Source: Escherichia phage warpig. Taken from it: a stretch of 64,000 nucleotides of DNA. The number at the start of each line of letters is the position of its first letter. Positions within the stretch are counted from its first letter, which is position 1. The notes under the pieces were generated by a model, which had not been told where the DNA came from, searched no databases, and saw only the letters and a program-made list of their open reading frames with translations. The translations under genes and the position numbers were made by a program. This document shows positions 42,980-44,560 of the stretch, piece after piece. The stretch is taken from sequence record MN850637.1, one strand, 5' to 3'.

Positions 42980-44560
42980 GTCTTATCAAATCCCTTATAC
43001 AACCCTTTCCCTTTCCTTTCCAGAATCTTATCAGACCTTAAAAAGCAATAACTCTATAGTCTACTCTATAGCCTTTTATCAAATCAACTTAAATATAAGC
43101 CCATAACCCGAAAGGGAAGGGCAACCGTTTAAACGCTCTATAAAGCTCTATAACAGCCTTATCAACCTAACTTAAGGGATTGCATTAACTCACCCTAAAA
43201 AGCCCTTTATAAAGCTTCCCAGAGACTTAAAAGAATCTTATAAGGGTGTAAGCTTTATCATCTCGTTAGCTATCTTGTGAACTACTAAACAAGCCCCTTG
43301 ATAGTAACTGAAAAGTATGTTATAGGGGCTTTAAAGTTACTTTGAAGTAGCTTAAAAGTTACGTAAATGCTAGCCCCCTTAACAATTTCTTAACAAACCC
43401 TACATAGTTATGCTTTTAAGGTACTTGTTAGCAACTTGTTAGCACCTTGTTAAATCTCTGTTAAGACCACGTAAAAGCCTTGTAAGAGTCTTTGACATAG
43501 CCTTTAAAGCCCCTGTAAAGCCCTATAAAGAGCTATCTGTACAGTTGGGCTGTAGTTACTAGGAAGAGACTTAAAAGGGGCTATACAGAGCTATACAGAG
43601 CTTTTAAGAGGTATGTTTAAAGAATCACTAAGAAAGGAAAGGGAACGATAAGAAAAAGAGTAGTGACCATGTTAATAGCTTGTTAAAAAGATTAAACACT
43701 TGTTAGAAACTTGTTAATTATCTTAACAAAATAACTCTTAAAAATTAACTTGTTAGCTCTTGTTAGTCATCTGTTAAGATTCTGTAAAGCCTATTCAGCA
43801 CTTGTTAATTGGTATTGTTACCAATCCCTAGAAAACTGTTACAGCCTTGTTAGTTCTGTTAAGAATCTGTTAAGACCTCTGAAGTGTTGTTAAGAAGATG
43901 TGAGAACTGTTAAGAGATTGTTAAGGATATTTTAAAATTTTGCAAAGTACTTGTAAGGGAGCTGTTAAGGGCTACCAAGCAGATATACATCCTCTACAGA
44001 TATTTTTGAGTTCCTTCAAAGACCCTAAAAAATGACTTGATAGTCCTATTTTATAAAAATTTTAAAAATCTGAATAATTACCTATACAGTCTTTTAAAAA
44101 TACAGGTAGAAACAGGCTTATAAGATACCTTGTTAGTACCATGTTAGACCTTGTGAGATAAGGTCTGTAAAGATATTCCTGTTAAGTTTGTTAAAACAGT
44201 CTATATAGAGGCTTAGTAATACCTAGTGAACACCTATAGAGAGTCACATAGTTAACCTAGAGATTAAGAGGTGTATAGGAGCTTCTAAGAAGGTGTAGAG
44301 AGATGGTTAAGGTGATTGTATAGACTGTTAAGAAGGCTTGTTAGAGGACTTGTTAGAAGGGTTATACAGAGGGGCTATTAAGACCACTAGATAGTTACTA
44401 AGATACTATATAGTACTATATAACTATATAGAGAGTAAGATTAAGAAGGTTGTTAAGAAGAATAGATATTTTGTTCACATATGATGGTGACCCAGAGGTT
44501 GGGACAACCGATAAAATTTTATAAAAATTAAAAAGCCCCCGATTAAGGAGGCTCTTAAGA
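42980..44560. repeat. gene-free iteron field (YTGTTAR / CTGTTAAG family)
   Basis: No ORF of 60 aa or more on either strand; more than 30 copies of CTTGTTAG/CTGTTAAG-like octamers, runs at 10-11 bp spacing (43423/43434/43445; 43699/43710; 43749/43759/43770; 44337/44350), plus GGGGCT/AGCCCC hairpins and CTATACAGAG, TATATAG repeats. Confidence 0.75.

Follow-up and report, generated by a model that had tools for sequence, protein, structure and literature searches.

An 11-bp-phased repeat array at the putative genome ends of a Felix O1-like phage

Among phages with short direct terminal repeats (DTRs), the way in which the genome ends are recognised and duplicated is poorly understood outside T7. 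The T7 genome has a short, exact and non-permuted DTR within a non-coding stretch, and its concatemer junction, the site of terminase action, is a packaging signal (Chung and Hinkle 1990, as cited in PMC13236587). One motif recurs inside the repeat, and a dense, regular array in a single orientation is found just inside the left end. In the T7 junction that we examined, the 160-bp repeat contained 3 copies of CCTAAAG and the 200 bp beside it another 8 (13 TAAAG cores), phased at 13 bp. To our knowledge, the function of these short-repeat arrays has never been established. The terminal repeat of T5, which is ~10 kb long and contains genes, includes an untranslated, repeat-dense region that carries the injection stop signal and has been tied to two-step injection (bioRxiv 10.1101/866236); this large and palindrome-rich region is conserved within the genus and is defined by ordered DnaA boxes. 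Iteron origins, like lambda ori and plasmid oriV, combine multiple phased direct repeats (4-6 units of 17-22 bp) with a nearby AT-rich stretch. Further close systems are the terminal repeats annotated in Felix O1-like phages (Pr103Blw, Ro111lw, HP1), which occupy the same locus and share the boundary sequences of the locus described here. PhageTerm results are available for several relatives (PMC8303462, PMC6454146, PMC11737134), including the repeats of Pr103Blw (PMC8303462) and Ro111lw (613 bp; PMC6454146). The reports that we found give length and position only. In the literature searched on the motifs and on the Felix O1-like gap, the 11-bp arrays, their orientation, their extension into the flanks and the boundary strings were not described, and the PhageMaP study of Bas63 was confined to genes. 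The location of the genome ends and the terminal repeat are thus already known in relatives, while the repeat array is undescribed in the literature searched, yet of a known kind. Felix O1-like phages are in wide use, in Salmonella typing, biocontrol, therapy cocktails and the BASEL collection (Bas63).

The window analysed here comprises 64 kb of Escherichia phage warpig (MN850637.1), a Felixounavirus (Felix O1-like myovirus). As the original prediction had claimed, its largest non-coding stretch is a gap of 1651 bp (42914-44564), in which no ORF of at least 60 aa is found on either strand; the only ORFs within it encode 47 aa (43750-43893) and 31 aa. The gap separates convergent gene blocks, both transcribed towards the genome ends and halted by terminators (Table 1), again as predicted, and in phage AYO145A terminators are annotated at the matching places at both ends of the gap. 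The gene-free distance from each terminus is ~0.4-0.6 kb. A search with the gap returned matches in 256 phage records, nearly all of Felix O1-like phages of enterobacterial hosts, with garuso as the best match (94%); the records that were opened belonged to the Ounavirinae.

Table 1. Coordinates of features in and around the gap, and of the terminase gene
Feature	Position in window	Strand	Remarks
Flanking ORF, left	42620-42913	+	
Intrinsic terminator, end of early-gene block	42952-42978 (terminator search: 42952-42972)	+	AGCCCCTTTCCCATAGGGGCT followed by T run
Left flank array	42980-43372 (393 bp)		Period ~11 bp
Left boundary string GTTACGTAAATGCTA/GCCCCCTTAACA	43358-43384	+	Terminus, by homology, between 43372 and 43373
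Homologue of direct terminal repeat	43373-43976 (604 bp)	+	Single copy here
Purine-rich non-repeat core, mid terminal repeat	43620-43665	+	83% A+G
Right boundary string GTTAAGGGCTACC/AAGCAGATATACA	43964-43989	+	Terminus, by homology, between 43976 and 43977
Right flank array	43977-44530 (584 bp non-coding to 44560)		Period ~11-12 bp
Most AT-rich 40 bp of region	44047-44086		90% A+T, 70 bp inside right boundary
Intrinsic terminator, end of gene block	44531-44556	-	
Flanking ORF, right	44565-45158	-	
Terminase large subunit (TerL)	58952-60568	+	T4-type Terminase_6N/6C; presumed boundary-cutting enzyme, role inferred

Judged from sequence comparison, the gap is the place where the linear Felix O1-type genome begins and ends, and the original prediction, which had listed a genome-end or packaging region among the candidate roles, had the location right. 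In four independently finished relatives the physical ends fall inside the gap. The record of Pr103Blw carries an annotated terminal repeat of 581 bp at both ends, and the repeats of I14.1 and of the Mooglevirus HP1 measure 581 and 570 bp; in each of these three genomes the copies at the two ends agree over their full length without a mismatch, and the boundary sequences are shared. GE_vB_7A ends within 6 and 2 nt of the same boundary points and has a redundancy of 582 bp. The left boundary string of warpig recurs unchanged at the ends of Pr103Blw, I14.1 and HP1, and the 26-mer at the right boundary is identical across Felixounavirus, Mooglevirus and Suspvirus. Kolesnikvirus, too, has retained AAGCAGATATACA at a distance of 29 nt after TGCAAAG. 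The DTR can be mapped in the window because both boundary strings of the relatives occur there, 604 bp apart. The termini of warpig are therefore placed by homology, and the window shows the repeat once, as expected where two genomes join in a concatemer or where an assembly has collapsed the two copies. By homology, the virion DNA of this phage group can be taken to be a linear molecule whose ends are fixed and carry a short DTR; in the relatives, exact repeats of 570-582 bp with constant positions argue against a headful (pac) or cohesive-end (cos) site. A 127-bp terminal redundancy in NJ12 lies off the boundaries, looks like an assembly overlap and was left out of the count.

The original prediction described the gap as a field of octamer repeats that suggests protein binding. 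Units of the family CTNNNNAG, whose members include CTTAAAAG, CTGTAAAG, CTATAAAG, CTATACAG, CTCTATAG, CTATATAG and others, occur 65 times in the gap, against 11.3 +/- 2.9 expected (z = 18), and YTGTTAR occurs 25 times, against 1.3 +/- 1.1 expected (z = 21). The predicted number of more than 30 octamers holds for the 5-mer core TGTTA, with 30 copies on the + strand and just 4 of TAACA, and not for the three exact octamers, of which there are 20 copies (0.3 +/- 0.6 in 500 dinucleotide shuffles). The proposed 10-11 bp spacing was confirmed as well: 20 pairs are 10-11 bp apart (5.2 +/- 2.2 under random placement), none is 5-6 bp apart (5.3 under random placement), and 27 of the 64 neighbour distances are 10-12 bp. 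At a lag of 11 bp, base identity reaches 0.38-0.44 across the left flank and terminal repeat, compared to ~0.27 in a coding control, with harmonics at 21-22 and 31-33 bp; the peak in the right flank is lower and broader (0.34 at lag 11 and 0.37 at lag 12). Within the 64 kb, such periodicity reaches z > 4 in windows of the gap only. Together with the conservation of TGTTAR, the enrichment, phasing and orientation bias are indirect indications of protein binding.

The arrays fall into three parts. Within the terminal repeat we found 28 CTNNNNAG units, 19 forward TGTTAR and 3 inverted YTAACA (43379, 43390 and 43723). The right flank, which in virion DNA would lie immediately inside the left-end copy of the repeat, has 21 CTNNNNAG units, 8 forward TGTTAR and CTATATAG repeats; the TGTTAR units in the terminal repeat (19) and the following 480 bp (8) are all forward. 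The left flank, presumably the sequence immediately inside the right-end copy, has 15 CTNNNNAG units, 5 TTATCA, two copies of CTCTATAG and AAGTTAC repeats, and zero copies of TGTTAR. The possibility that the region maps simply to terminal repeats is thus half borne out, as the repeat is present but the arrays extend 393 and 584 bp beyond it.

Nor is the locus without a described counterpart, contrary to the original prediction: the terminal repeat appears in GenBank annotation and papers on relatives, and the layout parallels that of T7, in the exact DTR in a non-coding stretch as well as in the same-orientation array. The motifs (CCTAAAG in T7, TGTTAR and CTNNNNAG in warpig), the period (13 bp versus 11 bp) and the dimensions (a 160-bp repeat and ~0.45 kb versus a 604-bp repeat and ~1.6 kb with 65 units) differ, however. 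In addition, both gene blocks of warpig read towards the ends, leaving no early promoters beside the repeat, and warpig is a myovirus with a T4-type terminase without a recognisable small subunit. The resemblance is therefore best seen as an analogy of layout and not as homology. The reading we favour, and which we consider rather likely, is that the gap serves a short-DTR phage as its concatemer junction and packaging region. The iterons would then probably be protein-binding sites for the generation of termini, and most likely the repeat units guide the cutting and packaging of the DNA.

Several other explanations have to be weighed against this packaging reading. The array could be largely functionless, satellite-like filler, in which the boundary strings alone matter and the 11-bp units have multiplied through replication slippage where coding constraint is absent. 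In line with this, the indels among relatives comprise whole units (with peaks at 11-12, 22-25 and 32-35 bp), identical units lie side by side (e.g. CTATACAG x2 and CTCTATAG x2), and the length of the terminal repeat varies between 567 and 658 bp over 21 loci, in steps of ~11 bp. Nevertheless, we regard filler as quite improbable given the conservation. Per 200 bp, the gap is 85-96% conserved and the flanking genes 48-96%, so that the gap is conserved equally to or better than its neighbours; in Mooglevirus and Suspvirus the adjacent 197-aa protein retains ~50% amino-acid identity and the gap DNA 77-80%. TGTTAR positions are 97% conserved versus 88% for other positions (p = 5e-11), and the copy number of TGTTAR per genome is stable at 21-30. 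Moreover, motif, orientation and layout are common to four genera (Felixounavirus, Mooglevirus, Suspvirus and Kolesnikvirus), although the flanking genes have been replaced; a tblastn search with the 197-aa protein gave no match beyond the group of the first three. The Kolesnikvirus gap was located by synteny, as the record of Fifi106 is circular and that of Fifi318 starts upstream of TerL, so that neither gives termini. In Fifi318 the syntenic gap between convergent genes is 1407 bp, has an 11-bp periodicity (z = 4.4), contains 17 TGTTAR units (25-fold enriched relative to the remainder of its 37-kb locus) and shares the AAGCAGATATACA string, whereas its left-flank unit differs (TTCTAA, 12 copies). 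Least probable by far is a non-coding RNA locus or a set of hidden small genes. A few 200-nt windows fold at z near -3, and small CDSs are annotated here in one relative. However, the structured RNA put forward in the original prediction finds no counterpart in Rfam at E <= 0.1 (the sole match was Phe_leader over the - strand terminator, 24.8 bits where the threshold is 55, E = 0.27), sigma-70-like promoters are not in excess (8 versus 7.0 +/- 2.6 expected), the fold z-scores are near 0 across the iteron core (43580-44080), and the terminator on either side points into the gap. No reading frame survives the indels of 11 and 23 bp; in Pr103Blw, for example, a 23-bp deletion lies inside the 47-aa ORF.

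The gap might also be an origin of replication, with the iterons bound by a phage initiator, DNA unwinding at 44047-44086 and replication initiated beside the genome end. This would be compatible with a role in packaging, but we consider an origin unlikely. Phased, oriented and conserved iterons are a hallmark of iteron origins, and the AT-rich 40-mer is the only candidate unwinding element, although other stretches of the region also reach 78-85% A+T. Secondary origins of T7 lie near the genome ends. For Felix O1 no origin has been assigned (PMC3185647). On the other hand, warpig has dozens of units of 7-8 bp in an array that straddles the termini, unlike the few and longer units of the known iteron origins, and the five flanking ORFs scanned include no initiator-like gene (no Pfam family and only PHROGs of 'unknown function') and no recognisable family of partition ATPase or centromere-binding genes, as would be expected beside a parS-like site. 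A centromere-like or protein-titration array, also among the predicted roles, was neither supported nor contradicted. Neither DnaA boxes (5 versus 5.2 expected) nor IHF sites (0 versus 0.3 expected) exceed chance, the replication genes and divergent early promoters are ~37 kb away (near position 6000 of the window), GC skew over the window follows the direction of transcription only, and the position between convergent terminators leaves the array without transcriptional activation. A signal for DNA entry or end protection, which pauses ejection, binds a host or virion protein or shields the ends from RecBCD, has T5 as its model and appears very doubtful to us. In the virion DNA the arrays would take up 0.6-1.2 kb at either end, in a stretch without genes that require expression. 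T5 has a comparable region, likewise large, non-coding and rich in repeats and palindromes, that is tied to its terminal repeat and conserved within the genus. However, the DnaA boxes that mark the T5 region are not enriched in the warpig gap, a candidate binding protein was not found, and we know of no two-step entry in Felix O1-like phages.

In the packaging reading, replicating genomes would be joined head to tail via the terminal repeat, and terminase (TerL, alone or with a recognition partner) would cut at the two conserved boundary strings, with duplication of the repeat during packaging as in T7. The same-orientation TGTTAR units, phased at ~11 bp throughout the repeat and over the 480 bp that follow it at the left end, could serve as sites for the cooperative assembly of a recognition protein, which positions the nuclease. 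At each boundary the last unit would face outward, towards the cut (TGTTAAGGGCTACC for the right-hand cut, top strand; TGTTAAGGGGGC for the left-hand cut, bottom strand). The left-flank units, a separate and genus-variable sequence family, may bind a second factor or may alternatively act as a bent or structural spacer, and the arrays as a whole would change over time as entire 11-bp units are gained or lost. The outward geometry of TGTTAAG relative to the cut is not retained at the presumed right boundary of Kolesnikvirus. An array of ~1.6 kb and 65 units also far exceeds the need of two cut sites, which speaks against the packaging reading. Since the left flank is devoid of TGTTAR, one terminase platform cannot account for the whole array. 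More speculatively, and in our view rather doubtful, the TGTTAR field could be the assembly platform of a previously unseen packaging-recognition system, belonging to a terminase without a canonical small subunit, in which a phage protein (or TerL) polymerises over several hundred bp of 11-bp-phased sites and measures two cuts ~600 bp apart, so that the terminal repeat would lengthen or shorten by one unit at a time. If true, this would for the first time account for the function of the long-known short-repeat arrays of T7.

As for the proteins involved, no small terminase subunit could be recognised beside TerL, and an analysis of Felix O1 likewise found TerL only (Whichard 2010, PMC3185647). 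The 66-aa ORF upstream of TerL (58745-58945) was considered as a small terminase and rejected: it is acidic, belongs to no Pfam family and to a PHROG of unknown function, and has close homologues only. Its positional counterpart in Kolesnikvirus is also acidic. Among the proteins examined (the flanking ORFs and the ORF upstream of TerL) there was no candidate for a TGTTAR-binding protein. The conserved, phased iterons point to a DNA-binding factor in a terminase system without a known small subunit. The locus provides a second system next to T7, richer and with natural length variants of 11 bp. In practical terms, the exact boundary strings help to orient and finish assemblies, the 1.6-kb gap is a region to keep intact in engineered or minimised genomes, and it is a candidate cis-acting packaging cassette for transducing plasmids.

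Some minor elements are interleaved with the arrays. A tandem of CTATACAGAG (43580-43602) and TATATAG repeats (44404-44432), both reported in the original prediction, were recovered by Tandem Repeats Finder. The purine-rich core of the terminal repeat is partly complementary to a CCCTTTCC run at 42994-43021, with which it forms an inverted repeat. The GGGGCT/AGCCCC copies that had been predicted to form hairpins are indeed present; most of them are parts of the two terminators or form no more than weak pairs with long loops. One of these copies, TAGCCCCC, belongs to the left boundary.

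The gene-free gap between the two convergent transcription units is very probably the genome-end, or terminal-repeat, region of this phage. A sequence search with 42900-44600 returned 256 phage records, nearly all from Felix O1-like phages of Escherichia, Salmonella, Shigella and Citrobacter, with at least 80% of the query covered in 197 of them and Escherichia phage garuso as the top match (94% identity). Every matching record that was inspected is classified within the Ounavirinae, and the window also carries a T4-type terminase large subunit and a Mu-type portal, as in Felix O1-like phages. 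Several relatives have GenBank records that begin or end within the query. The record of Pr103Blw annotates a 'short direct terminal repeat region' at 1-581 and 87841-88421, and two 581-bp terminal repeats were reported on basis of PhageTerm (PMC8303462). PhageTerm also provided the termini of I14.1 (PMC11737134), the Mooglevirus HP1 has an annotated repeat_region of 570 bp and is described as having 'direct repeats at both termini' (PMC9120918), and a 613-bp repeat was reported for Ro111lw (PMC6454146). The left-end and right-end copies of Pr103Blw, I14.1 and HP1 match without mismatch, and the three share the left junction ...GTTACGTAAAYRCTA|GCCCCCTTAACA... and the right junction ...GTTAAGGGCTACC|AAGCAGATATACA... 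In GE_vB_7A, which comes from a fourth laboratory, the sequence begins 6 nt and ends 2 nt inward of these points and has a redundancy of 582 bp. Since the window holds both boundary strings (the sequences spanning the repeat ends), a homologous repeat of 604 bp can be placed in it by homology to these relatives, and the window thus appears to show the arrangement of a concatemer junction: gene 23, terminator, 393-bp left flank, repeat, 584-bp right flank, terminator, gene 24. Genome ends were among the candidate roles in the original prediction, and this candidate has gained firm ground. The region does contain the homologue of a terminal repeat, but it does not map simply to one, as the arrays extend beyond it into both flanks.

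Features of the gap and its edges in the window
Feature	Position	Strand	Basis
Gene-free gap	42914-44564		ORF scan
Intrinsic terminator	42952-42972	+	prediction; faces into gap
Left boundary string	43358-43384		present in window; match to relatives' ends
Direct terminal repeat homologue	43373-43976		placed by homology to relatives
Right boundary string	43964-43989		present in window; match to relatives' ends
Intrinsic terminator	44556-44531	-	prediction; faces into gap

At 1651 bp the gap is, as predicted, the longest part of the window to lack any ORF of at least 60 aa, and its location between convergent blocks is borne out by the inward-facing terminators at both edges; terminators are annotated at both matching positions in phage AYO145A. 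The flanking ORFs gave no Pfam family and only PHROGs of unknown function. In Felix O1 the counterpart of the gap separates gene 23 (+ block 97-131/1-23) from gene 24 (- block 40-24), these blocks being two of the four transcription units of Whichard et al. 2010, who make no mention of the gap (PMC3185647).

The repeat units of the gap are far more numerous than expected. The three octamers noted originally occur 20 times against 0.3 expected in dinucleotide shuffles, and YTGTTAR 25 times against 1.3 (z = 21). The claim of more than 30 octamer copies therefore does not hold for exact octamers, but the TGTTA core is found 30 times on the + strand (TAACA only 4 times). The family itself is real and broader than noted, as it includes 65 CTNNNNAG units (11.3 +/- 2.9 expected, z = 18), at a density of 41 per kb in the gap and 9.5 per kb elsewhere in the window. 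The spacing of 10-11 bp was confirmed as well: 27 of the 64 neighbour gaps between units measure 10-12 bp, and 20 unit pairs lie at 10-11 bp and none at 5-6 bp, against 5.2 and 5.3, respectively, under random placement. The density thus exceeds that of composition-matched shuffles, and the phasing exceeds that of random placement. In the left flank and central part the base autocorrelation is highest at lag 11 (0.38-0.44), and the right flank has a broader, lower maximum at lags 10-12 (0.34-0.37). Harmonics are seen at lags 21-22 and 31-33; a coding control gave around 0.27. In a sliding scan of the 64 kb only five windows, all covering the gap, exceeded z = 4 for 11-bp periodicity.

Relative to the ends the units are distributed unevenly. 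TGTTAR is absent from the left flank and occurs, in forward orientation, 19 times in the repeat and 8 times in the right flank; three inverted copies are located at 43379, 43390 and 43723. The repeat begins with GCCCCCTTAACA and finishes with TGTTAAGGGCTACC, and each cut is thus faced by one outward-directed TGTTAAGGG unit, the two being on opposite strands. At the left end, TTAACAWTTTC is present 2 times in the window and up to 5 times in relatives. The left flank has different units (TTATCA x5, CTCTATAG, CTTAAAAG and AAGTTAC), and the centre of the repeat is a non-repeat segment of 83% purine.

Conservation was analyzed in an alignment of 16 distinct gap versions, from GenBank relatives and from IMG/VR loci retrieved by the boundary strings. 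Gap versions within Felixounavirus share 90-97% pairwise identity with the window, and that of the Mooglevirus HP1 shares 76%. Per 200 bp, conservation is 85-96% in the gap and 48-96% in the flanking genes (3.3 kb and 4.4 kb); in Mooglevirus and Suspvirus the adjacent 197-aa protein shows 50-55% identity and the gap DNA 77-80%. TGTTAR positions are 97% conserved and all others 88% (Mann-Whitney p = 5e-11), and conservation of the CT and AG frame positions likewise exceeds that of the spacers. Copy numbers per genome are stable (21-30 TGTTAR, 56-70 CTNNNNAG), indels are most frequent at sizes of 11-12 bp (43 events), followed by 22-25 bp (33) and 32-35 bp (8), and the repeat length varies from 567 to 658 bp across 21 loci in steps of around 11 bp. 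Since the array gains and loses whole units, a coding function is excluded; the array is under constraint despite this turnover. As the aligned loci were chosen by exact match to the boundary strings, boundary conservation among them is partly by construction; independent support comes from the right 26-mer, which is identical in Mooglevirus and Suspvirus loci of around 78% overall identity, and from Kolesnikvirus.

The Kolesnikvirus Fifi318 (Erwinia host, 44% G+C) has different flanking genes and a 1407-bp gene-free gap between convergent blocks, gp110 and gp111. This gap is the only strongly 11-bp-periodic stretch (z = 4.4) in the two large loci scanned, which cover 79.5 of the 84.5 kb of this genome. 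It contains 17 TGTTAR (12 per kb, compared with 0.48 per kb over the remainder of the 37-kb locus), confined to the right two thirds, and TTCTAA x12 in the left third only. TGCAAAG-N29-AAGCAGATATACA is present with the spacing seen in the window, and an IMG/VR scan for this pattern gave 31 loci, 30 of them on phage contigs of 51-94 kb (27 already found via the Ounavirinae boundary string) and one short and probably a chance match. The layout is thus characteristic of the subfamily, with a left array specific to the lineage, followed by a conserved TGTTAR array over the repeat and right flank and then by a conserved right boundary.

Short-repeat phages of the T7 paradigm are described as replicating as concatemers joined via one repeat copy, with terminase cutting at fixed sites and the repeat being duplicated in packaging (Casjens and Gilcrease as cited in PMC6454146; Chung and Hinkle as cited in PMC13236587). 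In the phage studied here the boundary strings would be the cut signals, the phased, outward-pointing TGTTAR units may be sites to which the terminase's recognition component binds cooperatively, and the flanks could be part of the same nucleoprotein structure or structural spacers; the 11-bp period fits sites on one face of slightly underwound DNA. We consider a role of the iterons in end recognition and packaging an even proposition, and the combined reading, a genome-end region with iterons acting in this way, somewhat favoured. No small terminase subunit was recognisable beside the terminase large subunit gene (TerL; 58952-60568, +) in the window. Within 58745-60568, TerL has T4-type N and C domains, and the only ORF ahead of it is an acidic one of 66 aa with unknown function; Kolesnikvirus has a 60-aa acidic ORF at the same position. 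The array points to a DNA-binding factor in a terminase system without a recognisable small subunit, and the element is useful for assembly finishing and phage engineering.

For comparison with T7, both of its ends were retrieved and the junction was rebuilt. The T7 repeat (160 bp) has 3 CCTAAAG copies. The 200 bp that adjoin it at the left end contain 8 more (13 TAAAG cores) and show an autocorrelation of 0.54 at lag 13, and a few copies lie ahead of the right-end copy. The layout is alike, whereas motif, period and scale are not, and there is no sequence relationship. Relatives already have an annotated and published terminal repeat at this locus; we found no account in the literature of the arrays of units and their polarity, of the boundary strings, or of how these are conserved across the Ounavirinae. 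The gap element is thus a larger new example of a known element type rather than a new type.

Other roles of the array appear less probable. A replication origin, which would be compatible with packaging, is unlikely, given that DnaA boxes (5 against 5.2 expected) and IHF sites (0 against 0.3) in the gap are at chance. A DNA-entry or end-protection signal of T5 type is slightly less likely still: the terminal repeat of T5 does include a large, repeat-bearing untranslated region to which the injection stop signal is linked (bioRxiv 10.1101/866236), but that region is defined by DnaA boxes, which are not enriched here. Functionless slippage filler is equally doubtful; it would share the whole-unit turnover, and the TGTTAR positions are the better conserved ones. 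The structured non-coding RNA originally proposed is very improbable, as the gap has no Rfam match (the best score, over the terminator, is 24.8 bits where the threshold is 55), the number of sigma-70-like promoters is that expected by chance (8 versus 7.0 +/- 2.6), and folding z-scores (-3.3 to +0.9) are near 0 over the iteron core.

Several minor observations were made. Outside 42900-44600, CTNNNNAG shows a two-fold excess (9.5 per kb against around 4.7 expected from CT and AG dinucleotide frequencies), which could be caused by codon usage. The sole other 200-bp bin with nine CTNNNNAG-type units is at 45600-45770, where they are spaced 11-12 bp apart (CTTCTAAG, CTACAAAG, CTATCAAG, then CTTACTAG, CTTCTCAG, CTGCTCAG, CTTCTCAG), some of the run being in an intergenic spacer and some within the - strand ORF 45644-45868. 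A polymorphism of around 26 bp, ATGAGGTAGATTCTACCGAATCAACT, occurs just right of the repeat boundary (window 43990-43996), inserted directly after AAGCAGATATACATC in a subset of relatives (loci L016, L020, L031, L033 and L035) and absent from the window. GenBank PP892526.1 (vB_EcoM_I14.1, locus L007/L008) is Felix O1-like by sequence, and the Tequintavirus (T5-like) lineage given in its record seems to be a mislabel. Upstream of the terminase gene, 21 tRNA genes are clustered on the + strand (53813-58522), as is typical of these phages. Several small + strand early ORFs are preceded by a repeated leader element, ATCAACGGGG(M)GGGAATGACCTTCCCCACTAAAT..AAGTCCTAAACTGGAGATTC.AAAAATG, which comprises a hairpin and ribosome-binding site (40225-40285, 41452-41510, ~42005-42030 and 42600-42625), and sigma-70-like TTGACA promoters and GGGGCT/AGCCCC terminators lie between the early cassettes. 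The 39- and 57-bp direct repeats of Felix O1 (Whichard 2010; PMC3185647) look like the same elements.
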